Origin: an uncultured Chthonomonadaceae bacterium
GTDB taxonomy: Bacteria > Armatimonadota > Chthonomonadetes > Chthonomonadales > Chthonomonadaceae
Direction of reading: 5' to 3'
Assembly (NCBI GenBank): GCA_963817895.1
Contig: CAWFQB010000004.1
Span: forward strand, 96,001 to 160,000
Length of the DNA stretch: 64,000 nucleotides
Numbering within the stretch: position 1 is the stretch's first letter; each line of letters starts with the position of its first letter. Positions 1,470 through 52,867 of this stretch are shown piece after piece. The position numbers and the translations under genes are program-made. Under the pieces are notes generated by a model. The model was given only the letters and a program-made list of their open reading frames with translations, had not been told where the DNA came from and did no database searches.

Positions 1470-1570
1470 GTTGACTTCCTTATGAGACAACTCACACTGA
1501 ATATATTGTGAGTGCGGTGTGCTGGATAACGCGGGGCTGAGGCGCTACGCTTCTGCGCCATCCATGCCGT

Positions 1571-5999: not shown

Positions 6000-6040
6000 A
6001 GGATACGTTTCAAAACCTTTCTGATGCCTGCTGGAATGGA

Positions 6041-9900: not shown

Positions 9901-10409
9901 ACCAGAATCCGGCGAACCATCCGGCGCAGCATCATTTCACGGACATACAGACCAGCCATAATCGTCTTGCCCGCCCCGGCATCGTCAGCGAGGAGAAAGC
10001 GCAGGCGCGGGTGTGATACAAGCCCTTCAAGGCCATCAGGATGGTCAGCATCGGGTGGTATACCGTACACCGCGACCAATTGGTGCGGGAGCGGATCAAT
10101 CAGGCTGGTTTCCGTAGCGAAAACAGGATTAAACAGATAAGCATGGTTCAGGCGATGCGCTTCCGCCACCAGGCGCACCAGACACGCATCGGCGCGATAT
10201 ACGGCACTATCGCCTTCCAGCAGTTCAAAGCGCTTGGACAACTCGGCTATGACGTAGGGCCTGCGCTCAACCTCCCCGGTCTTAGCATCGCGCAATGTGA
10301 GAAACACCACGCTTGCCTGCGTTTCAACGGATTGCACAAGCCGCTCTTTTGCGCGTTGCCGATCATACAACCGTGTATTCGGTTTGATACTATTCAAAAA
10401 ATCGCTCAT
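6921..10409 (-). CDS. SNF2-family helicase with C-terminal DUF3883 (NOV-like) nuclease domain
   Basis: LLADDAGAGKT, DEAH, LLLSATPH, ATDAAGEGINLQ, WNPARLEQRMGRVHR. C-terminal GYDLRS...IEVKGR...LTENEW...YWLY. Confidence 0.92.
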   Translation of the reverse strand: MSDFLNSIKPNTRLYDRQRAKERLVQSVETQASVVFLTLRDAKTGEVERRPYVIAELSKRFELLEGDSAVYRADACLVRLVAEAHRLNHAYLFNPVFATETSLIDPLPHQLVAVYGIPPDADHPDGLEGLVSHPRLRFLLADDAGAGKTIMAGLYVREMMLRRMVRRILVIPPAGLVGNWEQELRNLFRLRFRIVNSRDVRPDDNPFADARFDHAILSIDTARQDRVRAALNDAPAYDLVICDEAHKLSARRNPDLSADKSKRYETVEEIAARCQHLLLLSATPHMGKDDPYFFLWRLLDPQQFSTPDALYRTRPEVRRRHLLRRMKEEMVRFDGTPLYPPRESKTVSYPLNADERTLYEAVSQYVEEYYRKTTAGNRSSVGLALSVIQRRLASSAWALLRSLERRAAILAENLKRLQDAMLTADEFALEQGKLPTQDLREEKTGDEEESEDGTEEGERFDDVVSRATPARSPEELAKELLEVQALAALARAVYDAQQESKFLRLQELLKEHPDTKILIFTEHKDTLNFLVARMEGMGYTDRIATVHGGMDYRERERQTARFRSPECPYMIATDAAGEGINLQFCWLLINYDIPWNPARLEQRMGRVHRYKQTHDVLLLSLVAEKTREGAVLQTLLDKIEIIRQRLGNDKVFDVIGEQLGGISLADLLFQAAVQGEATAAAAVVAQAFDPATFAEKLKAQESRVEVSEVRALLQTLRRGQETAEERRMMPAYVRGFFRDAAPLLGLRFAGDLDGIFTLADSPETVRRAIETYPPELHSRLTFDRYLALPTNAMRPEAIYLHPGEAVFESIMDLFLGRFEDGTERGATFYDPNTTEAYVFALAKIAVVRPVLDGEGQPTDARETLGEEMIGVVLRPNGAMQTVPAHLLLTLDMDATPASAESAPPTIPQVLCDIVDNPAPIEGYIMEEKGIPLVERLRSELQARLPQRKNQLVQAYNLRAAEGMTQRRRLKDDVTKGVPAAKSKLDRLEKELTGLDDARDMAISTLYQEIDLLNFGPVTIYARALVLPLPPEEAVRRRDVQAEVVALKVVRQHEEEQGAWIEDVSNPNLATGYDLRSHRPDGFVLYIEVKGRAGLAPVQLTENEWRQAANHRDKYWLYTVYHCDTDTPQLHRVADPFGNLLAKGGGVVIPAASVLGAAIPNIM

Positions 10410-11097
10410 GCGGTCTCCCATACATTCACACAGCAAACGTATTGACGTTATTGTGACTGCATGGTTGGGAAGGAAAACGGAAGTGATAAATAGATTCAAC
10501 ACGCTGCTAAGTGCCACCAGCGTTTCTATTATGCAATAGGATCAGGCATAGTGGCAAGGGAAAAGGCTGCCGGTACGTGTTATAGATTTGCCTCGCGGAT
10601 TCCTCCTGATGGACTCTCTTTAACGTGTATTCTCGTTTCTGTACTTGTAAGACTCTTATATGCCTATACATTGGGGTTCAAAAATCAGAAAATGTTGGGA
10701 CGGTTTTGCCCGGTATGTGAGCAGATTTTGGGTGTAACCCTTCGAGGGGAACATGAGCAATTTCTGTAAACGGCGAGCCGCTGGGTGTGCTAAAAGGCAA
10801 GCGAAGGCACGACAATAACTTCCAATCACAAAAAAGCAAGCGGAGACGGACGTACAGTATCTTTGCACTTTTTCAACTTTTGAGATGTGAGCAAGCGAAC
10901 CGGCAAAATCATCTTCCTATCTCATTTTCCGAAAAGTGCAAAGATACTGGGACGTATTCGCCCCGCTACATGCAGATTTCTGCTCCTTTTTGTTTGTTGG
11001 GCTAATAATGTGCAGACCCGGCGAGAAGAATAATGTCTTCGCGCCGGGCCCGCACATATAAGCAACCAATTGCCAAGTCTGCCAACCTGGGTGCGTA

Positions 11098-12349
11098 TCA
11101 GGGGTAAAGCACATTCTGCTTCGTGTTGGCTCTATGGCAATGGTCGAAACCCTCTTTATTACGGCAGTTGGGATTGCTCCTCATTTCCTGCTCAAAGAGG
11201 GCTTCCATCTCCGCCGAACTCATCGTCTCTGGGTTTAGAACATGGTAGTGCTTGCTGTACGCCAAGAGCAGGGCGGCTGTCTCGTAGTTGCGGCAGCCGA
11301 TAGCCACATGGATCGGTGTGATCCCCGAAACATCCGGCGCATCGGGATCAGCCCCCGCTTCCAAAAGCAGGCGAGTAATGTTTATCGTGCGCTGCATCCT
11401 AGCAACGGCATCGGTATAGCGCTTTTCTAAAACAGCACCAGGGCGCGGTTTCAGAACAAAACTGCTGACGTGCTGCATCGCTATTCGGTATAAGGCCGTT
11501 ACGCCTCGGCAGTTCGCGGCTTGAACATCGGCTCCATGAGAAAGAAGAAGGCGCACCATTTCTTCCTTGTTGTACTGGGCCGCAAGGTTCAAGGCAGTTT
11601 CGCCGAGAGCATTGCGCGCGTTGACATTGGCGTTGCATTCCAGCAACACCCTCACCAGCACTGTCCCATCATAAACGATGGCGTTGTGTAGGCAGGTGTC
11701 ACCGGTCTCATCGTCTTGTCTGTTGACATCTGCCCCGGCTTCGATTAAGGCGCGAGCAATGTTGGGGTACCATCGTATCTGATCTGGGACGTGCATCAGG
11801 TAAGCCTGCTCAGGATCGGCTCCGCACTCACACAGCGCACGGATGGACGCTTCTTCTCCACGATCAAGAGCCAGATCGAAGGGCGTCATATCTTTGTAGC
11901 ACACCTTATCGAGACGGTCAGGGTGGCGGGAGAATATCAGGCGGATCGAGATCAGCATCGCCGCGTATGATGGCACAGCGCACCGCCGACATCCCCGACT
12001 TGGGCGTGGCAAACACATCTGCGCCATGTTCAATGAGAAGGCGAACAACCTGATGTATTTGCGAAGTGTCGCCCGTGAGGTGCATCGCTAGGTCGAATGC
12101 TGTATTATAGGCGCTCCTTCGGAGTTGTTGGCTGGCTCCGCGCGCCAGCAGGAAACCCACCATCTTGGGATTAACCTGCTCGATTGCTTTGTGCAGCAGC
12201 GTGTAGTTGGAGGGATCGTGTTTATCGATCAGTTCCGGGCTGTCATCTAACAGTACCGTGAGACTGTCATAATCGTGCGCTTCGAGAGCGTGGAATAACT
12301 CCCGTTTCTGCTCTGCCAATATGTTTCTGTTCTTCTGAATAGTGGTCAT
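11098..12349 (-). CDS. Ankyrin-repeat protein (frameshift near 12000)
   Basis: Repeats TLLHKA, GDTCLHNA, GETALNLAA, GVTALY, GITPIHVA with GADV caps across two overlapping ORFs. Confidence 0.85.
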
Positions 12350-12811
12350 TTCTTTAGTCTCCAATCAGGAAGTGCCAGGGGCACGCCCGCCAGTACAGTA
12401 TAGATGTCCACCTAAATAGTCATTTCCTACATGCCCTCAACGTCACGACGATGAGTTGGCGGGCGGGTTGCCTGCAGGGGCAGAGTGCCTTTGGAGTATG
12501 TCTCGTTGGAGGACACACTTTGAACATGCCAAAGGCACTTTGCTGGTGGTTACTTTTCACGGCAACGAGGCAGAAGAAAATTTGCTTCTGCCTCGTCGCC
12601 GCGCTTACGGAAAATTGTGCGTGAGGTTTCCATATCAACTTGCCACGTAAGTCACCAACCCAATCCACCGCAACTGCCGTACCTTCCGCCTACGCTCACG
12701 TTCGACCTTATCGGCGAGGCAATAGCGCGTCGGATTCATCACACCTGTTTCATCTCTCAGTCCATCCAGCAGGCAATTGATACGCTTCATTTTGTTTTCC
12801 TTTCTCTGGTA

Positions 12812-13603
12812 TTAGCCCAGAAGATAGTCCTGATAGTTGACAGTGTGCGAGTCTAGGGCGGCTCCGGCCTGCACTAAAACATGCGCCGTGTCTGATGTGC
12901 CATACCGCAGCGCATAGTAGAGCGCGTTCTTGCCATTCTTGTCGCAGGCGTGGACATCGGCATGGCGCGCGAGCAGACAAGACACGAGTTCGGAGTTGCC
13001 TCGCGACGCGGCATACATCAGCGCAGTGCAGCCTCTCTCATCGCGCGCTTCGATGTCGCTTCCTCCATCGAGTAATGCTTGCACGACCGCCTCCTTGTTG
13101 CACCATGCCGCGTACTGCAAGGCCGTAAGTCCAAGTTCATTTCGCGCCTCCAGATCGCGGGCCGCCGCCACAACCAGGCGATTGATGCGAGGCGAGAACC
13201 CCATTAGCGAGTGCAATTCAGTGTTTCCGTCCGCCTGTTTTGCGCTTGGATCAATTCCCAATTGGCATAGGGCTTCCACCACCTCCACCCTGTCGCATAT
13301 TTCTGCCAGTCGGAGAACCGTCATCGACTTATGCACAGGATGGTAAATGTCCACGCCCTGTTCGATCAAACAGCGCACTTGATCCACGTTGCCAGTCAGT
13401 ACCGCGTTGCCCATCCTTGTGTAGCCCCCGTCTCCAATAGCGTTCAAGTTACCGTTGTCGGGAGTCCAGCCTCGTTGGGTTGCTTGGCTCTGCGGAGGTA
13501 AGCCGCTCTCGCCAGCGCTGTGTTGCCGCTCCTCTGCAATTGGATGTTGCTGTCGAGGCGCGTGTGTTGTTTCTGTTTCGTAGCCATTTTGTATCTCCTT
13601 CAT
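12812..13603 (-). CDS. Ankyrin-repeat protein
   Basis: GNTELH, GLTALQYAA, GCTALMYAA and GKNALYYA repeats. Confidence 0.9.
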   Translation of the reverse strand: MKEIQNGYETETTHAPRQQHPIAEERQHSAGESGLPPQSQATQRGWTPDNGNLNAIGDGGYTRMGNAVLTGNVDQVRCLIEQGVDIYHPVHKSMTVLRLAEICDRVEVVEALCQLGIDPSAKQADGNTELHSLMGFSPRINRLVVAAARDLEARNELGLTALQYAAWCNKEAVVQALLDGGSDIEARDERGCTALMYAASRGNSELVSCLLARHADVHACDKNGKNALYYALRYGTSDTAHVLVQAGAALDSHTVNYQDYLLG

Positions 13604-13740
13604 TGTGTGGGCTCGCCTTGTAGTGCGATAGTGGCGATAAGAGCGTAGTACAACCGAGTTGAGAATTGGCAGCATCCTTGCTTGAATGAAACGTGTAGAG
13701 CCGCCGCAGGGCTAACCGCACATCAGCCCTTGCAGCGGGC

Positions 13741-14265
13741 GTGGGAGGGCGGGCAATCCCGCACAGAAACACCCGCAATTATTTCCCACAAACTACATAG
13801 GCAACCCCAAAATCGATATTTCTGAATCCGTGCCATTTTTAGCCCCTTTCAGGTGTCCGCTGAAAAAAGTTTTTCAGCGGACACCTGAACCATGACAAAC
13901 CCCGGCGAAAAATCTTCGTCGGGGTTTGTCATACGCCAGTTTATATGGGTGTGCAGAGGATAGAACCTATAGTGTTAGCAGTCGAGTTTCTGACGCTCAA
14001 TTCTCATCACACAGCATGATCGTGGTGGTGCTCCTATCGGCCTCGGTGATGATGTATACCTGCTTCTCGCCAACATGATGCACCGACAGGAGCCGCCCTT
14101 CTTCCATCAGCGCCCGCTCGTTCCGCTGCCAATCTTCCTGGCTCACGTCTCCCCATTCTCCTCGATGATGCCTTTCGAGCAGGGATTGGGGCGTCAATTC
14201 CGGTTTCGTCAAGCATCGCCACGACTGCACCTGTCGCCTCGGTATGCCCCAGTACAAACATGCCC
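13741..14265. repeat. Copy 1 of a ~520-bp diverged direct duplication (small-domain coding sequence, two long hairpins, promoter-like region)
   Basis: Collinear similarity with 15155-15680. The hairpin ATGACAAACCCCGGCGAAAAATCTTCGTCGGGGTTTGTCAT is identical in both copies. Confidence 0.9.
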
Positions 14266-15113
14266 GCCAATGCTTCCTGCTGTCGTCTTTCCAGTGCCTC
14301 CCAGTCTTCACGCCACACCTTGTCATCCCAGTCATAGGTAATCACCTTTTCCGCCCATTCTGCCAAATCCTGGGTCGAACAACCGCGATGACGGAAAACC
14401 TCAAAATCGGGATTAACCGCATCGTAGACACATTGAGGCTGGTAGGGAGCGTAAACGCAACAAATACCCTCTCCTGAGATTGATCTGTGGACTTCCAGAA
14501 CGATGCGATACTCGTGATGGTCACGCCGTACAATCATGCCTGCTTTAATGTCGGCGGACGTGAGGGGTTGAGCAGGTGTGATGCCTAGTTCCATGATTTC
14601 GTCATCATCCAGATAGAAGATGTGTGACATTTCTGCTGTGCGCTGGGTAGGTGACATGCGCCTGATGCGTTCGCGCCTCGCGCCAGAGTGCAGGCGCAGT
14701 AGGCTGAGTTCGTATGCCGTGAATTGGTAACTGGCGCGTCTGGTACGTTTAGCCGTTGGAAACCGCGCCAACTTGGGAAGATCAGGGAGATACCCTGTCT
14801 TGGAGCCAGCAAGAACGTGTTCGTCTTCCAAGCCCAGCAATTCCCAACCAACGCGATGTATGTCATTTTGCTCAGGACTGGTTTCTATCCACAGGCGCAT
14901 CCGAAGGACACCATACTCTGTGCGCGCTTGGTCAGCGTAGGCCACGTCGAGTTGGCACGGCGCTTCTCCCTTTGCGAGCAAATCTGCGTCGGGCGTGTAG
15001 GCATAACCTTCAATGACGCCCTTCTTATCTGCCCCCAACGTAAAATCAAGCAACGCACTCGTGTGCTTGCTCAACTGGCAAAGGCGCGCGAGTTGTTCCG
15101 GCATTCCGTTCAT
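13997..15113 (-). CDS. Hypothetical protein ending in a 'plasmid-related' small domain (frameshift in C-run near 14190)
   Basis: Removing one C gives GIDAQSLLERHHRGEWGDVSQEDWQRNERAL...YIITEADRSTTTIML, a paralog of 15411-15680. Confidence 0.7.
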
Positions 15114-15154
15114 TGGTTTATCTCCTTTATGCGGTAAAGAAATGGGTTGGTAGT

Positions 15155-15680
15155 GTGGGCGGGCAGGCGATCCCGCACAGAAGCGCCCGCCGCATTATTT
15201 CCCACAATATATCTAGTCAAGGCGACATTTGATATTTCTGAATCCGAGCCGCTTTTGGCCCCATTCTGGGTTCCTCCGAAAAAACTTTTTCAGCGGACAC
15301 CGGAACCATGACAAACCCCGGCGAAAAATCTTCGTCGGGGTTTGTCATACGCCAGTTTAATGAACTCGCGGAAGATAGAACCTACAGGTTAGCAGTCGGG
15401 TTTCTGACGCTCAATACTCGTCTGCCAGCATGATTGTTGTCGCACTCCGGTCGGCTTCGGTGATAACGTACACCTTCTGCTCTCCCACCTTGTACACCGA
15501 AAACAGCCGATCCCCTTCCACTAGCGCCCTCTCATTTGCTTGCCAGTCGTCCTCGTCAACATTGCCCCAAAAGCCCATGTGATGCCTCTCAAACAGGGAT
15601 TGGGCTGTCACACCAGCCTCCTCAAGCATAGCCATAACCCCTGGAGTGCCCGATGTTCTCCCCATCTCGAACAAGCCCAT
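15155..15680. repeat. Copy 2 of the duplicated module
   Basis: See 13741-14265. Confidence 0.9.
15411..15680 (-). CDS. Small conserved MGE-associated hypothetical protein
   Basis: LFEMGRTSGTPG...RHHMGFWG..D...N..AL..G.RLFS.Y...VITEADRSATTIMLADEY resembles a family common on plasmids and ICEs. RBS AAGGAG. Confidence 0.8.
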   Translation of the reverse strand: MGLFEMGRTSGTPGVMAMLEEAGVTAQSLFERHHMGFWGNVDEDDWQANERALVEGDRLFSVYKVGEQKVYVITEADRSATTIMLADEY

Positions 15681-15847
15681 TTTCTCTCCTTTCAAAACAT
15701 CCGGGACACTTAACTGCTTGTTTGCGCTGGACTCTTGTTCTATCGAAAATACGGGCGCAAGCCAGTTCCCGTGAGTAACGCAGGAGCCGAAATATCTGTT
15801 CGGCTCCTGCGACCAAGATTAAACGGGCCAAATGCCAAGCCAATGAA

Positions 15848-17147
15848 TTAGGCTGATGCAGATACTTGGGTCATCTTATCCTGCGCGTAGTTAAATCGCA
15901 CGATAGAAAGATATTCTATGAGATTATAACCCTGCTGCCGTTCCAAATAATGCCAGTAATCCTTCCTCTCCTTGCGAATACAATCTGACAAGTAATCCCA
16001 TCCTCGTTGGGCGAGTTGGCGCAGTTCGTGGCGGCTGCTCCTGGCTGTGAGCAAGACACTGGCTTGTCTATTGAAGGATTTCACAGCCACCTCAATCGGC
16101 GTGATGCCAACATGGTTGGAAACATCAGGATCGGCACCGGCGTCCAGCAGCATAGTCAAAACGTCTACACTCCCGTTCATGGCGGCGCGATGCAGGGCTG
16201 TATTGCCATTCTCATCGCTGACATGAACATTCGCCCTTCTTTCGAGGAGCAGGCGCACGGGCGTGTTGTGACCGACACGCGCAGCAAACATGAGTGGAGT
16301 GTCGCAAGGAGTGCCTTGTGCCTCGATGTCGGCCCCCGCATCCAGCAAGAAGGCGACGTACTTTCCATCCGCCTGGAGAGTGGCAATATGTAGGGGCATA
16401 AAATAGGCGTGCGAATAGGAGTTCAATCGCGGCTCCGGCATCAAGCAACAAACGAGCCACGTCCAGACTACCATCTTTTTCGACGACCATGTGCAGTGGC
16501 GTCTCACCGTTCGCGTCTGTGGCATTCACATTTGCGCCGGATTCTAGCAGGACGCGCACAAGGTCTAAAGGCGTATCCTTTTGGATGTAATGTAAGGCAG
16601 TTATGTCATGTTCGCCCCGGATGTCAGGGTCAGCGCCACATTCCTGGCACAGCACACGCACGGTTTCGGTGTGCCCGCACTTGACAGCGAGATGGAGAGG
16701 GTATTGGTTGTTGCAGGAGGTACAGTTTACCTGATCAGGGTTGTTGGTAAAGATGGTGCGCACCAGAGCGGCGTCGTTCTGTTGTATGGCAAGACAGGCA
16801 AGGCATCCAAACTGTCTTGCAGGCAAAAAGGCGTTCGCTCCATGTGCGGCGATTAGACGCAGCAATTGCTGTCCATGCGCATTTTTGCTGGGTACATCCC
16901 ATGCTATGTTGATGGCAGTATATCCACTCGCATTGGGGATGTCGGCGCGCGCACCATGCTCAAGCAGCAAGGCGACCAGATCAGCCTCGCCCCACCATAC
17001 CGCGCGGTGCAAGAGTGTGCGCCCGCCTGCGTCTACCGCGTCTACAAGGGTGGGTGTTTCAGTGAGCATGGCCTGGATAACGTCCATTTGCCGGTAGTGA
17101 AACGCTTGGTGAATGTCTCGTACCTGTCGTGTGATTGAAGCCATCAT
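15848..17147 (-). CDS. Ankyrin-repeat protein (frameshift near 16420)
   Basis: GRTLLHRA, YPLHLAV, ITALHY, GETPLHM, TPLMFAA, GNTALHRAA, GITPIEVA. Confidence 0.88.
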
Positions 17148-32785: not shown

Positions 32786-33307
32786 ATGAGGACAGGAATG
32801 TTTCGCAGGAGTGTGGCATTTACCGTGTGCGGAATTGTTACCGGTTTGGCCTTGTGGCCGCGTCCCGCCGGGGCGGAGCATTTTGACATTACCCTGCGCG
32901 TGTCCGCGCCGAATAGTCACGGCGAAGCCTTTATGGACACCTCGCCGCCAATCGGCGGCGTCAACAAGCGCCCGCTTGTCAAGGCGAAACCCGGCGAAAT
33001 GGTACGCATTACGTGGAAGATGAAGAACGCTTCGCCGCACGGCGTTTTGAAGAACGTTACCATCCACTTTTTTGTTGTCAAGGAAGCGGAGATCGGCCAG
33101 AAGCCCACGCCCGACCCGTCAGGTGAGGCGGGAATTGTGGATAACAGCGTCACGCAGGACCTCGCGCCCAAATCCGGCGTCAATGGCAGTCTGCGTCTGA
33201 AAGCCCCGGAAGCCGGCAACTATCTCATTCGCGTCCAGAGTGAAGACACCAATGAAGAATTCGGCCACGAACACTTTTCCGCGATTGATTTGCAAGTCCA
33301 GCCGTAA
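32786..33307 (+). CDS. Secreted hypothetical protein
   Basis: Signal-peptide-like N-terminus; beta-rich body. Confidence 0.7.
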   Translation: MRTGMFRRSVAFTVCGIVTGLALWPRPAGAEHFDITLRVSAPNSHGEAFMDTSPPIGGVNKRPLVKAKPGEMVRITWKMKNASPHGVLKNVTIHFFVVKEAEIGQKPTPDPSGEAGIVDNSVTQDLAPKSGVNGSLRLKAPEAGNYLIRVQSEDTNEEFGHEHFSAIDLQVQP

Positions 33308-33625
33308 GCGGAACAAGCCTATTTGAACCCTGTTCTGCTTGAAGTCAGTCGAACGAAAATCAGCCACAGGCCGCAGCGATGCGGTTCCTGTGGCTGATGT
33401 GTTGTACCTTTCGGAAAGCGGCAATTAACATCTGTGCTTGTTGGGCTTGCCCTGCAAACTGTTAAACAACACACCCAATGAACCCTGCGCTATATGAAAC
33501 TCCTCCGTGTAGATAGGGCGCAGGCGTTTGGCTCCTCATGCGCCGATTGTCACGAGGATTATAGCGAGAATGTGGGGAAAGTTCAGGGGGGCGCGGCACA
33601 TTGCGAAATATTTCCTCCTGTCTTT

Positions 33626-36541
33626 TCACCTGCTGATAGCCACTGGCGATAGCCCTTTCGACTGGCGCAATTGCTCAAATCGCCGAACTTCGTCGTTGCT
33701 CACTTGTGTGTTGTCAAGTGAGAGATATTGCAGTTGGGTTAGGGCATTCAGGGGTGTCAGGTCGCTTACTGGGGTGTTAGCGAGGTAGAGCAATTGCAGT
33801 TCGGTGAGTTCACTCAATGGTGTTAAGTCATGCGTCTGCGTGCTGACAAGGGAAAGTTCCAATAGTTTAGTGAGTTTGCTGATAGGAGTCAAATCACTAA
33901 CCTGTGTGTTGTCGGCGGAGAGTATCTGCAGTCGTGTGAATTTGGCGAGAGGAGTCAAGTCGCTTACTTGCGTGTTATCGAGGTCGAGCCATTGCAGTTC
34001 GGTAAGGCTGCTCAGAGGCGTCAAGTCTCGCGTCTGTGTATTCGTAAGAAAGAGCCTTTGTAACTGGGTGAGACTACTGAGAGGAGTCAAATCGCGAATA
34101 TAGGGGCGATACGCTTCCACTGTACCCTCAAATATTTGCAGTCCTGCTAGAATAGAGGGTATCTGGGCGTAGGTGACAACAGCCAGCAGGTCTTCGGGGG
34201 GCAGAAGGGCGGCAAGTTCATTCAGCACGGCGGCGCGATGATCCTGATGTAGGTAGTCGCGCAAACATTCGCGCGCCCGTTCGCTCTGCATCTTGCCCAG
34301 TCCTCGCACACACGCCGCCGCATCCTTTTCCGGCATGTCTTTGCGCCATGCCAGGAACTCTACGGCGGTTTCCCCGGCTCCCGCCAGTGCTTCCGCTTTC
34401 TTGAACGTGTTGATGGGCAGCATCCGCTTGCGCAGACCGCTTACCTGCTGTTCCAGCGTTGTGTCGAGCCGATACGCCAGACGCCCGTGCGCTTTGAGGA
34501 CTATCACTTCACGCCGCTGACGGCATTTCTTGTCCAGCCCCTGCATGTTCATCAGGGCTTCCATTAGGCTTTGCACGTATGTCCGGCTGCTATCCGACCC
34601 GGCGGCAAACAGCAGGATAGGCTCCCACCGCTCCACGTCCCCGGCATCTACCTTCTTCATCAGGAACTCGATCTCACCCTGCTCCACAAACTCCAGCGCG
34701 GCCAGATAGTCGCGCAGGGAGTTGTGAACGAACTCCACATCGTTCTGCCCGCACGGGCGTATCAGGCCGCTACGTTGTTCCAGGCCGCACAACACCTGTT
34801 CCGCTTCCACATAGTCGTGGTTTTGTGCGCCCCCTATCGCGGTCGCCACTTCCCGCGCTGCATTGGCGCGTCCGATACGCGACCCCTCCTCCCGCGCAAT
34901 GAGCCACGCCAGATGCTGCGCCACAGCCAGCCGCATTGTTCTGTTCAGCGCATAGTAGGCGGGCGGGAACACTTCGCGCGGCACTTTATTGAGCCAGTCC
35001 CGGTCAAAAGCCAGCATGTTACACGCGCTCTGGCACAAATCATGCTCGTTTTGCGGCAGCGATTCTCGGTACAATCGGTTCAGAGCGCACAGCAGGGCGC
35101 ACAGCAGCGGATTGGCCGCCAGCAGCCCCACTGCATAGTTTGTCTTCATCTCCGCAAGCAGGCGCTGCTCGCGCTCTGCCAGTTCCTTCACGTCCTCCTT
35201 CGCATCGCCCAACTGCTGCCGCACGGCCTCATGCCAGCGCCGAACACACTCTGCCCGACCAAACGGCGACAGGTCGCGTATCTCGTACTCAACGAAATCC
35301 GCGTCTTTCAGCGCGTTCTCCTCCAACGCCGCCGGTCGGCTCGTTACGACAATCACATTCTCCGCAGAATAATCGCGTGTCAGTCCGCGTATCCATTTCA
35401 GCGCATCCTGCCGCCGCGCCTGCGACAGCTCATCCAATCCATCCAGCAGCAGCAGGCCACGCCCCTCGTTCAAAATACGTTTGGCCCACCCCGGCGGCGG
35501 TTCCTCATCGGGAGCGCCGCCCTTATGAAACTCTTCGGGCGTCGGCAATGTTCCCGTTTCCCAATCCCGCAGCCGCAGGTAAAACGGCGTTTTCTCACGC
35601 CATGCGGACATTCGCCTACCCTCGTCAAACTGCTTTCCATAGTCTTTGTCCACGGGCCGCATTTCGAGTTCCGGCCATTGCCTCTGCGCCGCTTCCAGCG
35701 CCAGCCAGCGCATCATCGTGGTTTTACCACACCCCGCCTTGCCGACAACCAGGGCGCGCTTCGTGGGGGATTTCAGCGCGTCCAGCAGCGCATCCGCCTG
35801 CACATCGCCGGGCAGTTCCGACAGCGACCGCCCTTGAGTCAGCGTCAGCGTCACATACGCTACCGAAAGCGTCTGCTTGCGCGACTCTTTGTGCAGCGGC
35901 TTCCCCTCGATAAACAACTCCACGTAATTGAGCGTGTCCGCCACAACCGCGCGATACTTGCGCTCGAAATCTGCGTATTCCTCCCAATGCGTTGCGGCCT
36001 GCGCGTTTTGCTCATTTAGCGTATCCGTGATATACGCCAGCAATTTCTCCTGATAGTCTGGCATATTCGGAAGCAATGGAAGAAACGCCCGAAGGTTTTT
36101 CACTATCAGTAGGTCGTGATACCTATCGTACTCTACATTGCCGCGCCCCAGAGGAACCGCGCGTTTCGCGTTCCAAAGGGCGGGCAGCCTTTCCAGCATT
36201 ACACGATTTTTCAGCAGTTCCGCAAAGTCGAAACCCGCTTCCATCGTGATCCAAGCCTCTCTGTCTAAGTCATCGATGTCCAGAGTGCAGCCTTCGCGTT
36301 GTGCCTGTTGTTTCACTTCTTTCAGAATTTGTCGCCGATTCTCTTCCAAGCGCAGATTGTGAAGAATGGCTTCCTGTTGCTTTTCCAGCACATCGCTGCC
36401 AAGTGCGAGCGTGCCCGTCACCGCGCCTGCATAATTGCCGGAGCCGACGGCAATCAGCACGTTCGCCACTTTCAGGCCAAAAGCACTTGCAGATTTCAAA
36501 GAAGTCGCTATTGGTTGTTTTCGTTTGTCTCTGTCTACCAC
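33626..36541 (-). CDS. NACHT NTPase with N-terminal helical domain and 6 C-terminal 22-aa LRRs (NLR-like)
   Basis: Walker A GKAGCGKTT, Walker B LLLLDGLDE, VTSR, NPLL, FVHNSL; DLTPL..L..LQ.L.L.NTQV repeats. Confidence 0.92.
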   Translation of the reverse strand: MVDRDKRKQPIATSLKSASAFGLKVANVLIAVGSGNYAGAVTGTLALGSDVLEKQQEAILHNLRLEENRRQILKEVKQQAQREGCTLDIDDLDREAWITMEAGFDFAELLKNRVMLERLPALWNAKRAVPLGRGNVEYDRYHDLLIVKNLRAFLPLLPNMPDYQEKLLAYITDTLNEQNAQAATHWEEYADFERKYRAVVADTLNYVELFIEGKPLHKESRKQTLSVAYVTLTLTQGRSLSELPGDVQADALLDALKSPTKRALVVGKAGCGKTTMMRWLALEAAQRQWPELEMRPVDKDYGKQFDEGRRMSAWREKTPFYLRLRDWETGTLPTPEEFHKGGAPDEEPPPGWAKRILNEGRGLLLLDGLDELSQARRQDALKWIRGLTRDYSAENVIVVTSRPAALEENALKDADFVEYEIRDLSPFGRAECVRRWHEAVRQQLGDAKEDVKELAEREQRLLAEMKTNYAVGLLAANPLLCALLCALNRLYRESLPQNEHDLCQSACNMLAFDRDWLNKVPREVFPPAYYALNRTMRLAVAQHLAWLIAREEGSRIGRANAAREVATAIGGAQNHDYVEAEQVLCGLEQRSGLIRPCGQNDVEFVHNSLRDYLAALEFVEQGEIEFLMKKVDAGDVERWEPILLFAAGSDSSRTYVQSLMEALMNMQGLDKKCRQRREVIVLKAHGRLAYRLDTTLEQQVSGLRKRMLPINTFKKAEALAGAGETAVEFLAWRKDMPEKDAAACVRGLGKMQSERARECLRDYLHQDHRAAVLNELAALLPPEDLLAVVTYAQIPSILAGLQIFEGTVEAYRPYIRDLTPLSSLTQLQRLFLTNTQTRDLTPLSSLTELQWLDLDNTQVSDLTPLAKFTRLQILSADNTQVSDLTPISKLTKLLELSLVSTQTHDLTPLSELTELQLLYLANTPVSDLTPLNALTQLQYLSLDNTQVSNDEVRRFEQLRQSKGLSPVAISR

Positions 36542-36705
36542 TACCTTGCTACCTCGTGCCTCTCCTTATGCCAACAATAATTTCGTTAGAATAGCAACAA
36601 TGAGTTGGACACAATGTGTTCGATCTACTACTCATGGACAACAAGCCGGTAACAGATGAATGGCAAGGGCGCATAGAGATACTCACAGTGCTATAATGTG
36701 GTTAA

Positions 36706-39531
36706 TCATATAATAATTGGTATTGCTGAAAGTCCTTTCGATTGACGAAGCCTCTGAAGGTTCTGAATTTCCTCGTCGCTCACCTGGGTGTTGGTGAGAT
36801 AGAGCATTTGCAGTTGGTCTAGTCCGCTCAGGGGCGTCAGGTCGCTCACCTGGGTGTTGGTAAGATCGAGCCATTGCAGTTGGTCTAGTCCGCTCAGAGG
36901 CGTCAGGTCGCTCACCTGGGTATCATTGAGGACAAGCCGTTGTAGTTGGTTTAGTCCGCTCAGAGGCGTCAGGTCGCTCACCTGGGTGTTGGTGAGATAG
37001 AGCATTTGCAGTTGGTCTAGTCCGCTCAGGGGCGTCAGGTCGCTCACCTGGGTGTTGGTAAGATCGAGCCATTGCAGTTGGTCTAGTCCGCTCAGAGGCG
37101 TCAGGTCGCTCACCTGGGTATCATTGAGGACAAGCCGTTGTAGTTGGTTTAGTCCGCTCAGGGGCGTCAGGTCGCTCACCTGGGTGTTGGTGAGATAGAG
37201 CATTTGCAGTTGGTCTAGTCCGCTCAGAGGCGTCAGGTCGCTCACCTGGGTATCATTGAGGACAAGCCGTTGTAGTTGGTTTAGTCCGCTCAGAGGCGTC
37301 AGGTCGCGAATGTAGGGACGGTACGCTTCCGGTAAGCCGTTATATGTTTGTAGTCCTGACAGAACGAAAGGAATATCAAATATGTTTACCACGGCAAGCA
37401 CATCTTCCGGTAGCAGAATGTTAGCGAGTTCGTCTAGCACAGCAGGACATGGCTTATTATGAAGATAAACCAAAAGAGCATCGCACGCTTGTTCGTTCTC
37501 TATACGCCCCAGGCCGCGTACGCAAGTAATTGCAATATCTTCCGTCTGGCACTCATGCCATTCCAAGTACTCGACGGCTGCCGCTCCCGCTTTCGCAAGT
37601 GCCTCCGCCTTCTCTATCGTATCTACTGGCAGTAATTGCTTGCGAATGGTGGTAATTTGTGTTGTCAACTCCGCGCCTAACGGTATCGGAATGTGCGCGG
37701 CCACTTTCAGTGCAATCAGTTCACGATAGTGGTAGTCGTCAGAATTTTGCCTGCGTTTATCTAATATCTTAGTTAATAACGCTCGTCCGAACTCATAGTT
37801 ACGGTCAGTTGCAGCGGCAAACAGCAATACTGGCTCCCATCGTTCCAAATCTCCCGAAGCTATCTGCCTTACCAGAAAAGCGGTCTCGTTACGTTGCACC
37901 AGAAGGAGCGATGCCAGATAGTCACGCAGAGCGTTGTGGACGAACTCAATTTCATCTTCATCCACTTCCCGCAGCAGACTACTCCGGTCAATCAAGCCTT
38001 TCAGCACATTTTCGGCTTCTGTCTGGTCGGGATTCGCCGCGCCGTGCAGCGTGGTCGCCACAATGTCTATCGCCCCCGCCCTTGACAGCGCCGGGACGCT
38101 TTCTTTCACCAGCGCGTAGGCGAGATGCTGCGCCACGAGCAGGCGCGTCGGATAGTTCAAATTGTCGTAATCGGGAAGGAAATTTTGTGTCGCTATGCCC
38201 TGAAGCTGGTCGCGGTCGTACAGCAGCATTTTGCACGCGCTTTCGCACAGGTCGCGCAGGTTTTGCGGCAGCGAGGCGACATACACGCGGTTGAGGGCGC
38301 ACAGTAGCGCGCACAGCAGGGGATTGGCCGCAAGCAGGGCAATGGAGCGGTTGGTTTGCAGTTCATGCAGCAATCGCGTCTGCTTCTCATCCAGGTTTGC
38401 AATTCTGTCCGGCAGGACGCTAAGGCGTTTGCGCACCGCCGCATGCCACTTCTGCACGAACTCCACTTTGCCCGACGGCGACAGGTCACGCACCCCGTAC
38501 TCGCGGAAGCCTTCTGCGGCCAGCGCGTCCGTCTTCACTGCCTGCGGACGGCTGCTCGCCACAAACACGTTTTCGGACGGCAGGTTTGTGGTCAGTTCCC
38601 GTATCCACTCCAACGCGAGTAGACGGCGCGCGGGCGCAAGTTCATCCAGGCCATCCAGCAGGACAAGGCCGCGCCCCGCATCCAGAATACGCTGCGCCCA
38701 CCCCGGCGGCGGTTTATGCCCCGTAATTCCCCAGGCGTGAAACCCGTCCGTGTCCGGGAACGTCCCGTCCTTGCAGTCGCGCAACCGAATGAGAAACGGG
38801 ATTTTGCTGCGCCACGATTCGGCTGTCCCCCGTTCGCGCTCCAATCCGCGCCGCATCGCTTCTTCCGGCTCCGCGTCCATATCCACCTCGCGCATACGGG
38901 CCGCTTCCAATCCGATCCAGCGCAGCAGCGTGGTTTTGCCGCACCCTGCCGGCCCGACCACCAGAACACGGCGCGGACCTTCCGGCAGATTGTCCAGCAG
39001 GCTGTCTGCCGGTACACTGCCCACCAGACTTTCGCCCTCCCGTCCCCGCGTCAATTCCAGGGTGACGTACGCGACCGTGAGTTCCTGCCGGCGCGCCTCA
39101 TCGGGAACATCCTGCCGCTCGATAAACAACTCCACGCGATCCAGTTTCTTCATCAGGGCATCGCGGTACGTGTATTCGAACTGCAAGTCATGCGCTTGCT
39201 CTTGACTGAGTGGTACTACTGTATGTGAAAGTGATACATCAAAGGATGTTGTTAGAGGTGGCTCTACATCATCTGGCTCTAAGTCCAAGCCAACGGCCTT
39301 GAATAAGGCACGAATAGAACTTAATCGTACAGTTTGAGCATTTTGTCGCCCATATCTAATAGTTCGCACTGTGCTTCGTCCAAGATTAGAACTTTGTGTT
39401 AAAAGTTCCTCTGTCCATCTTTTTTGTTGAGTACCATCGCTAGTCGTAGGCAGACCTGACCCTTGAGTAATGGCTACCTCAAGTCGCGCTACGCCCTTTT
39501 GCGATAAAATGTAAGCATTTTCTTTTGTCAT
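36706..39531 (-). CDS. NACHT NTPase with N-terminal Cro/XRE-like HTH and 8 C-terminal LRRs (NLR-like)
   Basis: WTEELLTQSSNLGRSTVRTI..G HTH-like segment; GPAGCGKTT, LVLLDGLDE; 22-aa LRRs. Confidence 0.92.
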   Translation of the reverse strand: MTKENAYILSQKGVARLEVAITQGSGLPTTSDGTQQKRWTEELLTQSSNLGRSTVRTIRYGRQNAQTVRLSSIRALFKAVGLDLEPDDVEPPLTTSFDVSLSHTVVPLSQEQAHDLQFEYTYRDALMKKLDRVELFIERQDVPDEARRQELTVAYVTLELTRGREGESLVGSVPADSLLDNLPEGPRRVLVVGPAGCGKTTLLRWIGLEAARMREVDMDAEPEEAMRRGLERERGTAESWRSKIPFLIRLRDCKDGTFPDTDGFHAWGITGHKPPPGWAQRILDAGRGLVLLDGLDELAPARRLLALEWIRELTTNLPSENVFVASSRPQAVKTDALAAEGFREYGVRDLSPSGKVEFVQKWHAAVRKRLSVLPDRIANLDEKQTRLLHELQTNRSIALLAANPLLCALLCALNRVYVASLPQNLRDLCESACKMLLYDRDQLQGIATQNFLPDYDNLNYPTRLLVAQHLAYALVKESVPALSRAGAIDIVATTLHGAANPDQTEAENVLKGLIDRSSLLREVDEDEIEFVHNALRDYLASLLLVQRNETAFLVRQIASGDLERWEPVLLFAAATDRNYEFGRALLTKILDKRRQNSDDYHYRELIALKVAAHIPIPLGAELTTQITTIRKQLLPVDTIEKAEALAKAGAAAVEYLEWHECQTEDIAITCVRGLGRIENEQACDALLVYLHNKPCPAVLDELANILLPEDVLAVVNIFDIPFVLSGLQTYNGLPEAYRPYIRDLTPLSGLNQLQRLVLNDTQVSDLTPLSGLDQLQMLYLTNTQVSDLTPLSGLNQLQRLVLNDTQVSDLTPLSGLDQLQWLDLTNTQVSDLTPLSGLDQLQMLYLTNTQVSDLTPLSGLNQLQRLVLNDTQVSDLTPLSGLDQLQWLDLTNTQVSDLTPLSGLDQLQMLYLTNTQVSDEEIQNLQRLRQSKGLSAIPIII
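36775..37302 (-). repeat. Eight 66-bp coding tandem repeats of three types
   Basis: GTCGCTCACCTGGG recurs every 66 bp from 36775 to 37237. Confidence 0.97.
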
Positions 39532-39722
39532 ACAACGTTCTCCTTCGTGTTCATATAGATATTCTACCCCAAATGACGAAATTTCTCAAACAAATTCAAA
39601 CAAACTGAAACAAACAGCATTATGGTGTCGTCTGCAAGTACATACGCTAGGTACTGAAGATGAAAATCAGTACGTTTCTCGGACCGTGATCTATCTATTG
39701 TGATAAGAGAGGACATGCAACA

Positions 39723-40022
39723 ATGACACGCCAGGCACTCCATATCTTCTTTGCCGCGTTTAGTGGCGCTCTAAGCGTTTACGTTTTCGCGCTGGCAGCC
39801 AATTACCAGAAGGCACCTTCCCAGTTCCATATGCCTTCATTCAATGATGTGATCGCCAAGATCATTATAGTAACATTCTACACCATCATTCATCTCTTGG
39901 TTGCTGTCCTCAGCGCAAACAAGAAACAAGCCAGCAATGAAGACGTCACCAAACAGGTGGCAATCGCGTTTCTCGCTAATATGGTCTTGGAACTTGTGCA
40001 GGCTGTGGTCTCTGGTCATTGA
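39723..40022 (+). CDS. Small membrane protein (about 3 TM)
   Basis: Three hydrophobic stretches; RBS-like GAGAGG; divergent from the NACHT pair. Confidence 0.6.
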   Translation: MTRQALHIFFAAFSGALSVYVFALAANYQKAPSQFHMPSFNDVIAKIIIVTFYTIIHLLVAVLSANKKQASNEDVTKQVAIAFLANMVLELVQAVVSGH

Positions 40023-40524
40023 TTTTGCATCATGTGACTGCTTGATTCTAACCTTATCATTGGTCAGCCTGCCTACAAGTAAGAAGGTAGCCTATGGCCG
40101 GATGAGGGTAGAATCTCATGCCTGCACAATCGCCTCCAAGGTTCAAATTTATCTGAAATATTTTCGCGAAAACAGTCTGGGGGTACTTCTAAAATCGCCG
40201 CCCAGTGTTAATATACGGCGTGTACAAAAACCGAATACCGTCCCCACTAACAAGGGAGGGAGGTGCAAAAGATGCCTGTTCACATCCGACCGCCCTGACG
40301 CTTACGAGGTCACGACGCCTCTACTGACAATTAAATAACACAACGAGACCGAGTGCTGAAAGCGCTGCATTGCCATTATTTCGACAACGTCTCCCTATAT
40401 TGTTAGGACACAAACGCGAACAGGAGCCACCCCATAGACCGGGAAGACTCCTGTTCGCATTTACCCATCAATTCAGAAGAAAAAGGAACTTCCTCCTTCA
40501 CCCTTCCACACTTCATCCTTTGCC

Positions 40525-43035
40525 TCAGTGCGCCATTGTGGCCGCTTCCTGTGGCGGGGCGGCGTTGTCTATGTCGTCCGCGATGGAGCCGCGCTTGCTG
40601 AACAGGATCGCGCCCGTCAAAGCCGCGCCCACGACGCCGCAGATCAGGATGCGAACCTTCACGCCAATGTCCTGAATCACGATCCCCGCGATGAGGATGC
40701 CTGTCAGGTTCATAACCTTGATGAGCGGGTTCAGGGCGGGGCCGGCGGTGTCCTTGAACGGGTCGCCAACCGTGTCGCAGATAATCGCCGCTTTGTGGAA
40801 CTCGGTTCCCTTGCCGCCGAACAGGCCGTCCTCAATCTTCTTCTTGGCGTTGTCCCACGCGCCGCCCGAATTGGACAGCAGGACGGCCAGCAGTTGCCCG
40901 CTGACAATCGCCCCGGCAAGATACCCGCCCAATGCCGCCGCGCCCGTTTGCGGATTGCGGAAGCCCAGCCCGAAGCCGACGAGAATCGGCAGGCCGATGG
41001 CGAGAATGCCCGGTCCGAGCAGTTCCTTTTGCGCCGCTGCGGTGGAAATAGCGACGCAGCGCGCATAATCCGGCTTGCTGGTTCCCAACATGATGCCCGG
41101 ATCGTTGCGGAATTGGCGGCGAACTTCTTCAATCAGTTGAAAGGCCGCGCGTCCGACCGCGTTGATGGCGAAACTGGAGAACAGATACGGGAGCCGCGCC
41201 GCCAATCAGCAGGCCGATGAACACTTCCGGCACTTCCAGCCGGATACCCACGTTCCAACAGCCCCGCGTCCGTCATAAACGAGCGGAACAGGGCGACGGC
41301 CGCGATAACCGCTGTGGCAATCGCAAAGCCTTTGGTCAGGGCTTTGGTGGTGTTGCCGACCGCGTCCAGTTTGGTCACGATGCGGTGTCCCGACATGCCG
41401 CTCTTGGTTTCCGTTCGCCCTGCCGCCGCGTCCTCTTCCAACACGCCCGACATCTCGAAAATGCCGTTCGCGTTGTCGGTAATCGGGCCGAAAGTGTCCA
41501 TTGCCAGAATGTAGCCCGTTGTCGTCAGCAGTCCCAACCCGGAAAGCGCGATGCCATACGCGGCGAGCAGCGGGTTGTTGGGGAAGATGGACAGGGCGAA
41601 TACCAGGGTCAGGGCAATGGCGAGCGCGCTCCAGACGGAACTCTCCAGCCCATAGGAAAAGCCGGAAATAATCATCGTGGCCGGCCCGGTTTTGGAGTTG
41701 TACGCGATTTCGCGGACAGGCTTCTTTTCAACGGACGTAAAGTATTCCGTCATCCAGCCGATGACAAGCGCGAGAATGATACCGAGGAACGTACACGCGA
41801 AGAAGCGCCACCACTCCACAACCGCATGCCCATTGGCATCCGGCAACTCTACGCCATGCGCTCGGACGCCATTCACCACATTGAAGACATCGAAGTACAG
41901 ATAGGAGCCGATGCCGAAGAACACAGTTGCGAGAGCGGCAGAAACATAAAAGCCCGTGTTGATGGGCTTCATGGGATCGAGGTCTTCGCGGTCTTCGCCT
42001 TTCACGGCCAGAACGCCGATAATACTGGCAAACACGCCCGCCGCGCGCACAATCAGCGGGTACATAATCAACTGCAACGCGCTGTGCGCAAGCGCGGTGC
42101 TGCTTCCCCAACTGCTTGCGGGAACAATGGCCGCGCCCAGAATGATGGCGGCAACCAGCGTCACTTCGTAGCTCTCGAACACGTCGGCGGCCATGCCCGC
42201 GCAGTCGCCCACGTTATCGCCCACGTTGTCGGCAATGGTTGCGGGGTTGCGGGGGTCGTCTTCGGGAATACCCGCTTCCACTTTGCCCACAAGGTCCGCG
42301 CCCACATCAGCGGCTTTGGTGAAGATACCGCCGCCCACGCGCATAAACAGCGCGGCGAGCGACCCGCCGAAGCCGAAGCCGACCAGAATCAGCATCGCCT
42401 TTTCTTTGTAAATCAGAAAGACCAGACACGCGCCGACAAGCCCAAGCCCGACGGTCATCATGCCCGACACGGCCCCGGCCCGGAACGCGGTTTCCAATGC
42501 GCCTTTAAACGTGGTGCGCGCCTGATTTGCCGTGCGCTGGTTGGCAAGGGTCGCCATGCCCATGCCGACATAACCGGCGACATACGAGGCCGCGACGCCC
42601 AGAATGAAGAACAGCGATACGCCCAACGCTTCATTTATGCCATAGCCAAGTTTGTCCTGACCCTTGTACAGCACAAACAGCAGGACGGCAATCACGACGA
42701 CAAGCGGCGACATCGTCTTCACCTGCTGCAGCAGATACGGCCAGCGCGCCATCTCGAATGGCTTTGCCGACCTCTTCCATTTTCGCCGTGCCTGCGCTCT
42801 GGCTTTTCACCTGCCCGAACCAGACAGCGCCCACGATCAGCGAAATAATACCGGAAATCATCGCAAACCAGATCAGACTGGTTTCCGAAGAAGTGAACGT
42901 GGGAAGCTGGACGGCTTCCGAAGCATGCGCCGCGTTTGCCAACGTCAGCAGCCCCAATCCCATCAAAGGCGGAAGCCAGCTTGCCTTCCGCCGCGCGCAC
43001 CCGGGCCGCCAAAGCCCCATACGGCGTTCTCTCAT
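40525..43035 (-). CDS. hppA: Membrane-bound proton-translocating pyrophosphatase (two frameshifts)
   Basis: [44 protein letters not shown] carries the Lys of K+-independent H+-PPases. Confidence 0.93.
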
Positions 43036-51300: not shown

Positions 51301-51675
51301 CTTGTAGATATTTGCTTTCAATCCGTCAGCATTTAGACGGAACAGGACGGTAGAAGTTTCATGCCCGGCAGCTTAGGGAGGCACTTAGAACTCAGTTGGA
51401 CTCACTTGGACTCAATCTTTACCACTTAAACGTAAAAAATTTATGAAGCGGCGGAAGGAAAAGGAGTCAGGCGTGGAGAAATACGCGCCGGAATCATGTT
51501 TTTGCCGTATGATAGCGGTAAGTCGCGGTTCTTGGTTTCAGAATCTCATTCCCGAACATTGTTCCAGCACCTTCGGAACGATGCGCAGATTTTCATCACT
51601 CCCTAAAAGTTTCAACGTCCCTTTCCCGCTGCGGCTTCGCGATTCCTGCGCTGCTGACGCGGGTACGAGTCTCGC

Positions 51676-52867
51676 ATGTCCAAACCCAAATCCCGGAAAT
51701 CGTCCCGAACCCGCGTGTCCTCGAAAGCGCAGGCCGAACCTGAGCCGCCCGCTTTGCCCGTCAACAGAGTCTCTGAAAGGCGATTGCCGCGAATTGCTGG
51801 CGACCCTGCCACCCAAATCCGTTGACCTGATCTTTGCCGACCCGCCGTACAACCTGCAATTGAAGCATGAACTCTGGCGGCCTAACCTGACCCACGTAGA
51901 TGGGGTGGACGACGCATGGGACAAGTTCAACAGCTTCGCGGAGTACGACTGCTTTACCCGCGAATGGCTGGCCGGCTGCCGCCACGTTCTGAAAGATACG
52001 GGCGCAATCTGGGTATGCGGTTCTTACCACAATATCTATCGCGTGGGAAGCATCTTGCAGGATTTGGGCTACTGGATACTTAATGACGTGAGCTGGGTTA
52101 AAAAAAATCCGCTGCCCAACTTCAGGGGAACGCGGTTTTGCAACGCGCATGAAACGCTGCTGTGGGCGAAAAAGTCGGAAAAGCAGCCGAAATACACGTT
52201 CAACTACAAGGCGCTGAAAGCCGGTAACGACGATTTGCAGATGCGAAGCGACTGGCACATTTCCACCTGCGGCGGCGAGGAGCGGCTGAAAGTAAACGGG
52301 CATAAAGCCCACGCGACCCAAAAGCCCGAAGCCCTGCTGCACCGTATCATTCGCGCCTGCACCCATCCCGGCGATGTTGTGCTGGACCCGTTTTTTGGGA
52401 CAGGAACGACGGGCGCGGTTGCGGCCCGCCTGCGTCGGCAGTGGATCGGTATCGAGCGCGAAGCCGCGTATGTGGAACTGGCCGAAGACCGAATCGCGCA
52501 GATTGTCCCGCCCCTTCTGCCGGATGAGATGACGCCGCCGCCACTGGATACGCCCAAACGCAAAATCCCGTTCGCCACGCTGCTGGAACATGGCCTGCTG
52601 GCTCCCGGCGATACGCTGCGATTGGGACGCTCGGAATTTGAAGCGACGATTCTCGACGACGCCACTATTGCCTGCGGGGGCGAACGCGGCAGTATTCACA
52701 GCGTGGCCGCCCGCTGCCTGAACAAACCCTCCTGCAACGGCTGGGAACACTGGCACTATCGCCACCCTCTGACGAGCGAATACCTCCCCCTCGATACCCT
52801 GCGCGAACGCATGAGAGCCTTGATTGAAAATAATGGGCAGGTAAAACCGACTATTGCGGCGAAATGA
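51676..52867 (+). CDS. CcrM/M.HinfI-like beta-class adenine DNA methyltransferase with C-terminal RAMA-like domain (1-nt frameshift near 51772)
   Basis: FADPPYNLQL, VDDAWDKF, GSYHNI, HATQKPEALL, DPFFGTGTT, GSIH...SCNGWEHW. Confidence 0.88.

Follow-up and report, generated by a model that had tools for sequence, protein, structure and literature searches.

Two NLR-like genes share a variable slot

A 64,000-nt stretch of an uncultured Chthonomonadaceae genome (hereafter the window; G000:C4:96001-160000, G000 being the source genome of 7.48 Mb in 14 contigs) carries two adjacent genes, A and B, whose products are built like nucleotide-binding, leucine-rich repeat (LRR) receptors (NLRs). Judged by sequence, both are members of the known bacterial NNH1-NACHT-LRR (NLR-like) family, and they are neighbours within a variable slot linked to a dispersed repeat, where each is probably an infection sensor in its own right. 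The initial annotation of this DNA had presented them as a dedicated two-receptor module. It overrated the pair, which is in itself no evidence for plant-style paired NLRs in bacteria, and what remains of value is the exchanged effector domain of A and the repeat-linked cargo. The two genes and their modules are:

36706-39531, minus strand: gene A, 941 aa; predicted XRE-type helix-turn-helix (HTH), NACHT module, helical region, eight LRRs and C-cap
39256-39531, minus strand: A head, residues 1-92; predicted XRE/Cro-type HTH in place of the family's helical N-terminus
37852-39186, minus strand: A NACHT module, ~residues 116-560; Walker A GPAGCGKT, Walker B DGLDE, winged-helix domain (WHD) histidine H532
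36778-37305, minus strand: A LRR array; eight 66-bp units, which fall into three types and are arranged a b a c b a c b
33626-36541, minus strand: gene B, 971 aa, with GTG as start codon; NNH1-like helical domain followed by NACHT module, helical region, six diverged LRRs and C-cap
35972-36541, minus strand: B head, residues 1-190; probable divergent NNH1-like all-helical domain, with residues 14-41 of low confidence in the model
34640-35971, minus strand: B NACHT module, ~residues 191-634; Walker A GKAGCGKT, Walker B DGLDE, WHD histidine H606
33698-34093, minus strand: B LRR array; six units, mutually 14-32 nt apart

The two open reading frames (ORFs) are intact and co-oriented, and the 164-bp gap between them contains no predicted terminator. 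Both products match NACHT (PF05729; 59.8 bits for A, 74 bits for B) and LRR_4 above the Pfam cut-offs. As proteins they align with 49% identity over 822 residues, starting at A118/B192, while their N-termini do not align with each other and their DNA is 66-75% identical in patches only. Both sequences have the GxxGxGKT Walker A and D[GAS]hDE Walker B motifs of bacterial NACHT proteins, together with the C-terminal repeat sensor and distinct N-terminal domain of that layout. The FVHN histidine that follows the NTPase (H532 in A, H606 in B) is invariant or nearly so in the family and is presumably equivalent to NLRC4 H443. The description of two NACHT-LRR genes with NLR architecture therefore holds, as do the 22-aa LRR units counted in each array. 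An NCBIfam search with A and B returned internalin matches only, all below cut-off, a sequence search of the PDB with the A core gave a single P-loop peptide, and Rfam had no match over 33200-40600.

Among 84 homologues of A(1-745), 40 carry NNH1 (PF22733), and many of these are actinobacterial. The NNH1-NACHT-LRR proteins of Streptomyces, Amycolatopsis, Actinoplanes and others share their NACHT clade with A and B (25-35% identity) and likewise have internalin-like 22-aa LRRs; relative to the Pfam NNH1-NACHT-LRR proteins, the B head is too divergent for the model and A has lost this head. Bacterial NACHT (bNACHT) proteins, including the LRR-bearing bNACHT16, resemble A and B in effector-NACHT-sensor layout, Walker B motif, WHD histidine and LRR sensor (10.1101/2022.07.19.500537). 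That survey lists NNH and HTH domains, LRR sensors and DNA-binding 'adaptor' effectors and reports that bNACHT effectors vary within a genus (Kibby et al., 10.1101/2022.07.19.500537); its Table S1 may already contain the A/B clade or an HTH-NACHT-LRR architecture.

The LRR units of A are 0-13 nt apart, with amino-acid variation confined to positions 9, 13, 15, 17 and 18 of 22, all predicted to be exposed. Homogenisation of this kind characterises the family's non-actinobacterial branch, mean unit identity being at least 0.75 in 12 of the 15 other arrays scored. Near-identical units that vary at exposed positions are also a feature of the NLRs with high internal repeat conservation described by Dyrka et al. 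(10.1101/2020.01.06.895854). Those repeats are WD and TPR, whereas the units here are LRRs, and prokaryotic NLRs are said typically to be without LRRs.

A and B come from different branches of the family

In the family tree, A groups with the protein homologues P0003, P0004 and P0007, and B with P0006 and P0086. An approximately unbiased (AU) test, run on 15 of 32 rows with a simpler model, rejected a sister grouping of A and B (p-AU 3e-42) and also a grouping that joined A to the B clade as a whole (p=0.034). By these sequence comparisons the two genes were separately derived, from different family branches. The adjacency and the shared C-terminal words would also be accounted for if one gene had recently been duplicated in tandem at this site and had exchanged its N-terminus, or if the assembly were at fault, but both are very improbable and largely refuted. 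The rejected sister grouping and the low, patchy DNA identity argue against duplication. The C-terminal LRQSKGLS, which had been read as shared by the pair, is indeed present in both proteins, but a similar C-cap occurs in P0006, P0003, P0004 and P0009. As for an artefact, three short contigs of sequencing run X1 are identical to parts of A, though none of those listed spans the HTH junction; the sequencing runs listed comprise no RNA run and one DNA run with a small share.

The B orthologue in the congener G002 (82% core identity) is solitary and lies at another locus, and three further family copies in that genome are also solitary. Between B and this orthologue, DNA identity is 0.80-0.90 in the core and 0.63-0.67 in the head and LRRs, compared with 0.80-0.81 for housekeeping genes; the effector and LRR regions of B thus diverge faster than the core.

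Two family members at one locus were found at none of 84 family loci (92 loci compared), of which 57 had at least 3.5 kb on both sides and 21 at least 3.5 kb on one side. Of 401 genomes of the phylum, with three candidates scored in each, 13 had a family match, and only G000 had two on one contig. The pair was therefore conserved nowhere in these sets, an outcome that the initial annotation had itself named beforehand as refuting. Clustering of NACHT genes does occur, as seen from a distant second STAND gene beside a family member at two loci and from a metagenome contig on which three NACHT-like genes, all of other families, stand in tandem (L146:662-12364). A literature search of incomplete coverage found no description of a bacterial NACHT-LRR pair or of an NNH1 function.

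We considered a dedicated sensor/executor pair, in which A, with its rapidly changing LRRs, would be the sensor and would either form a complex with B or switch it on, leaving execution to the helical head of B. This would fit the adjacency, the common orientation without a terminator and the similarity of the cores, and also the division of features, A being without the default head and having homogenised LRRs while B keeps that head and has diverged LRRs. The linkage is, however, unconserved across the 84 loci and 400 phylum genomes, the B orthologue in G002 stands alone, homogenised arrays are common in solitary members, and the Walker motifs are intact in both proteins, all of which makes such a pair unlikely. 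In plants, paired NLRs of the RRS1/RPS4 type are head-to-head, conserved and interdependent, and one partner has an extra DNA-binding domain. A and B resemble them in being two linked NLR genes but are head-to-tail and unconserved. The occurrence of the pair in G000 alone, the separate branches and the defence-rich repeat described below instead suggest that A and B are likely independent phage sensors. Three points weigh against this reading: the family loci compared were the best 80 of 298, mostly actinobacterial; the 401-genome count scored three candidates per genome; and PADLOC, one of the checks proposed in the initial annotation, has no relevant model for either gene.

The head of gene A is a predicted XRE-type HTH

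GC content at third codon positions is 0.20-0.35 over A residues 1-120, compared with 0.65-0.85 in the NACHT core and ~0.7 in host genes. This composition marks the HTH of A as an apparent low-GC graft onto an NNH1-NACHT-LRR chassis. The head is absent from the 400 other phylum genomes, a homologue search with A(1-115) returned only A itself among 158 candidates of similar length, and no XRE-HTH joined to the LRR clade of A and B was found among the 84 homologues or 84 loci. One real homologue of the head was identified, P0093 (43%), where it lies ahead of a different leader that we take, from its motif, to be of another NACHT type. Three other candidates were rejected, P0094 as a spurious match to Ig repeats and P0095 and P0096 as weak matches to HTH repeats.

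A structure model of the head predicts a compact helical HTH fold (pLDDT 79). The top Foldseek rows were C.Esp1396I, HigA2 and HipB (probability up to 0.99, E 0.035), and most of the 50 rows of a VIA search were XRE-type (Z 5.0-7.3); further XRE controllers and antitoxins resembling the head, with modest scores, were HigA, DdrO and CapH. An Atlas lead (0.88) pointed to a cyanobacterial HTH_3/HTH_26 cluster, and Pfam, with its HTH_3 and HTH_26 models, gave no family at E 0.05. We assign the modelled head to the XRE/Cro-type HTH fold, in agreement with the HTH-like domain first noted for one of the genes. Weighing against the assignment, it leans on a model built from two sequences and on modest best scores (Foldseek E 0.035; Z 7.3).

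Three features lie upstream of A:

39561-39589, minus strand: sigma-70-like promoter candidate TTGAGA-17-TAGAAT, a 10/12 consensus match 30 bp upstream of A
39585-39614, minus strand: triplet of 10-bp direct repeats, TTTGTTT(C/G)A(A/G), that overlaps the -35 hexamer; putative operator of the A HTH
39723-40022, plus strand: 99-aa hydrophobic ORF, divergent from A, of low GC and with no family above cut-off

The direct-repeat motif occurs once in the 7.48-Mb genome, where the background rate of such 10-bp triplets on the contig is ~12 per Mb, and no such triplet was found in the upstream regions of the 84 related genes. The promoter is a consensus match only, three sigma-70-like sites having been found in the region where 4.6 were expected. 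XRE proteins usually bind inverted repeats, and the direct orientation of the candidate operator counts against its assignment to the HTH. Because these unique repeats overlap the putative -35 box, A likely regulates its own promoter. Together with the absence of such triplets upstream of related genes, the precedent of AfsR, an NLR-like regulator that binds a 22-bp promoter repeat (10.64898/2026.09.02.748808), makes autoregulation by A reasonable to infer. For the 99-aa ORF, 200 other genomes of the phylum yielded no match; since it and A have in common the intergenic region with the direct repeats, it might be a further target of A.

AfsR and MalT, like A, place a DNA-binding domain on a STAND core; AfsR combines this with SARP, NB-ARC and TPR domains, unlike A (10.64898/2026.09.02.748808). 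Such regulators suggest a different reading, in which A has no part in immunity but acts as a STAND transcription factor that answers a metabolic or stress signal, and B is a bystander. The N-terminal DNA-binding fold, the repeats at the promoter and the AfsR parallel all speak for it. Yet a motif that occurs once in the genome leaves no regulon, this form of HTH was not found in 400 genomes of the phylum, and neighbouring slots hold restriction-modification, Ssp, DISARM-like, Septu-like and Thoeris-like parts, so that we regard a non-immune role as quite unlikely. Two cyanobacterial HTH-NACHT proteins (L144, L149) likewise have an N-terminal DNA-binding domain on a STAND core, but their heads are 21% identical to that of A and their NACHT clade and sensor differ. 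Gene A represents a clean natural effector swap, with a predicted XRE-HTH on an LRR-NACHT protein, and together with the candidate operator this makes the transcriptional output of a bacterial NLR directly testable.

The head of gene B is probably a divergent form of the family default

The ~190-residue head of the closest relatives escapes Pfam detection. In HHalign comparisons, B-type heads matched nine intermediate relatives (99.5%, E 9e-23), which in turn matched 47 NNH1-positive heads (98%, E 2e-13), while reversed controls gave 0.1-0.3%. This two-step profile link via intermediates indicates that B carries the family default head in divergent form, NNH1-like rather than NNH1 proper. Atlas leads pointed to NNH3 and NNH1 (0.90 and 0.86). 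The assignment is weakened by the direct comparison of B-type and NNH1 profiles (22%, E 1e-3) and by the Pfam NNH1 model (PF22733), which did not match B even at E 0.1. The helical domain had been described as unrelated to the head of A; it is helical in the model (all-helical, pLDDT 84.7, with residues 14-41 mostly <50) and does not align to A, but through the intermediates it appears to be the ordinary NNH1-related head of the family.

A membrane output had also been suggested for B on account of a hydrophobic N-terminal segment. The segment is moderately hydrophobic, with a best 19-residue Kyte-Doolittle mean of 1.31, but this is ordinary for the family (0.66-1.69 in 16 relatives), and no transmembrane helix was predicted by hydropathy. 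Foldseek gave no match at E 0.001, whether to a pore-forming bundle of the HeLo/MLKL/CC kind or to another fold, which excludes no family, and the best structural score was Z 5.8 (root mean square deviation 5.9, 103 aligned residues); neither hydropathy nor fold search supports the possible membrane output. B begins MVDRDKRKQP and is without the MDPIT/MEPIS-like start that is linked to plasmolysis by bNACHT11 (10.1101/2024.12.17.629029). An M[DE][PA] start occurs in 7 of 46 NNH1 relatives.

Other heads are found in the family, among them a trypsin-like domain (PF13365) and, presumably, from their motifs, a metallophosphoesterase or cyclase. In one branch, from Cyanobacteria, Planctomycetota and others, the head is long, begins WLHLSDLH and is taken by us to be phosphoesterase-like, and the LRR arrays are long and homogenised (L066, L069, L085, L087, L096, L103, L112, L115, L121, L128 and L138). 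Two B-type loci (L038:7233-9745 and L037:1105-5384) comprise a relative in G020 with an AAA_21 ATPase and a putative nuclease alongside, and one in G002 with a type III restriction-modification pair alongside.

A dispersed repeat marks defence-rich slots

The two genes lie in a block that varies between genomes and ends near a copy of a dispersed repeat:

33308-40524, no strand: variable block, ~7 kb between a conserved 181-aa gene and a membrane pyrophosphatase-like gene; junctions approximate
40156-40401, plus strand: dispersed repeat copy, the core of a ~440-bp miniature inverted-repeat transposable element (MITE) with ISAs1-type terminal repeats, both of which are missing here

In the congener G001 the flanking genes are ~200 bp apart and the block is absent, whereas the slot holds a different 3.7-kb insert in G020 and other content in G002, where the repeat is found at the same gene end with other cargo. 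The gene at the far side, presumably a membrane pyrophosphatase (40525-42752, minus strand), is in two frames here and whole in G001, G002 and G020, probably reflecting an assembly indel. Short hairpin repeats lie at 33354-33403, 33484-33524 and 40069-40123, and the genome has many small dispersed repeat families.

The repeat is genus-restricted, being found in the two congeners but not in 58 other relatives, with 46-48 copies in G000, 137 exact end motifs in G002 and at least 11 copies in G001. Its terminal inverted repeats match the ends of two transposase-bearing elements in G000, which identifies the full-length repeat as a MITE with ISAs1-type ends, a family label that we assume from the transposase sequence and the ends. 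An inverted left end lies at 398-425 bp in 5 of 46 copies, both ends scoring >13 in two of these. Most copies are without the left end and many without the right, and no terminal end was scored on either side of the copy in the window. Like ISAs1-family insertion sequences (IS) and MITEs, the full-length repeat has terminal inverted repeats; unlike ISAs1 MITEs, it has mostly lost its ends, its inner core is better conserved, and it has foreign, defence-rich DNA on one side. A structured RNA was also considered, but the consensus fold has 22 pairs, none of them compensatory, and so gives no support. ISAs1-type MITEs marking defence cargo were not described in the publications found by a literature search of incomplete coverage.

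At 43 of 46 copies, GC content is lower to the left of the repeat than to its right (0.528 vs 0.591), and A and B lie on this low-GC side. PADLOC matches were found for 33 of 150 left-side proteins and 1 of 51 right-side proteins (p=4e-4), including type II, IIG and IV restriction, SspB/C, DrmD, TmtA, OLD/Gabija-like, QatC, PDC-M41, ThsB and PtuA parts; STAND-TPR and NACHT-HEAT genes also lie on the left. The clear left-side defence parts are spread over 15 of 40 loci. All six family loci (4/4 in G002 and 2/2 in G000) are on the left side of the repeat, within ~0.7 kb, and five of the six NACHT-like ORFs of G000 (E<1e-8) are within 3.6 kb of a copy, with a chance of 2-5% each, repeat-linked loci not being independent draws. 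The defence setting first proposed for the pair is thereby upheld. Several points temper the one-sided association: the comparison covered 40 copies at E 1e-12, with 150 of 157 left ORFs submitted; the flanks sampled were 4.3 kb on the left and 1.5 kb on the right; a hand count of clear defence parts gave a weaker contrast (20/150 vs 1/51, p=0.018); and the searches turned up neither a second end of the cargo nor an enzyme to mobilise it. A search for a far end common to the cargo blocks found only other short dispersed repeats and an IS, and inverted left ends far away were present in only 2 of 46 copies.

The third family gene of G000 (L040:5452-9901, G000:C7) has an NNH1 match of 135 bits and is split by a transposase insertion; it adjoins a copy of the repeat, and a NotI-like endonuclease and a methylase are encoded close by.

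Cargo of this kind may also be idle, in which case A and B came with foreign DNA, one or both are inactive or decaying passengers, and the HTH graft is accidental. That three of the four family copies in G002 are frameshifted, that the third copy in G000 is split and that the HTH fusion is a singleton is consistent with decay. Both ORFs are nevertheless intact over 2.8-2.9 kb with all NACHT motifs present, the changes in the A LRRs are limited to predicted exposed positions, and the frameshifts may be assembly errors, as conserved genes in both assemblies show them too; passenger status is improbable.

Proposed activity of A and B

In the reading that we favour, that of two separate infection sensors, the LRRs would bind a ligand from phage or damaged host, by analogy with known NACHT proteins, after which the NACHT module would exchange nucleotide and oligomerise and the N-terminal domains would cluster, as extrapolated from bNACHT11 and bNACHT01. 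The clustered NNH1-like head of B would then probably stop growth or kill the cell, directly or via a host partner. In A, the clustered HTH would attach to DNA, most probably at the direct repeats that overlap its own -35 box, so that the gene would regulate itself in response to the signal. Since B lies 164 bp downstream with no predicted terminator, A might also set the level of B, a coupling that would be local and recent. A term search of the accessible part of another report (10.64898/2026.01.04.697583) returned no mention of LRR, HTH or NNH.

The slot was likely filled by one-sided insertion with the repeat as its anchor; unrelated defence genes on the same side of other copies would thereby be explained. 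A bolder version, which we consider doubtful, is that the transposon-derived repeat core serves as a one-sided landing pad for immune cargo (~47-137 slots per genome, with NLRs, restriction systems and further defence genes all going to one side), and that here a newly assembled XRE-NLR detects infection by its shuffling LRRs and switches on its own promoter and a downstream killer NLR, a transcriptional relay created by cargo stacking. The repeat marks dozens of defence-rich slots and so offers a route to mining defence genes in an unexplored genus, and it may hint at a so far undescribed way in which genes are captured. Its copies mark numerous candidate defence genes that lack annotation (L163-L202).

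Other genes of the window

The remaining genes of the window were rejected as a neutral control (9/46 with PADLOC matches), since they include a defence cluster. This defence-like cluster (103-10517, minus strand) comprises a SNF2 helicase (HmaA/DrmD models), a large TmtA-like ATPase and an HmaB-like methylase piece. It is followed by a run of co-oriented genes (11101-16525, minus strand), three with ankyrin-type PDC-M72A matches, and a type II or orphan DNA methyltransferase lies at 51443-52864 on the plus strand.

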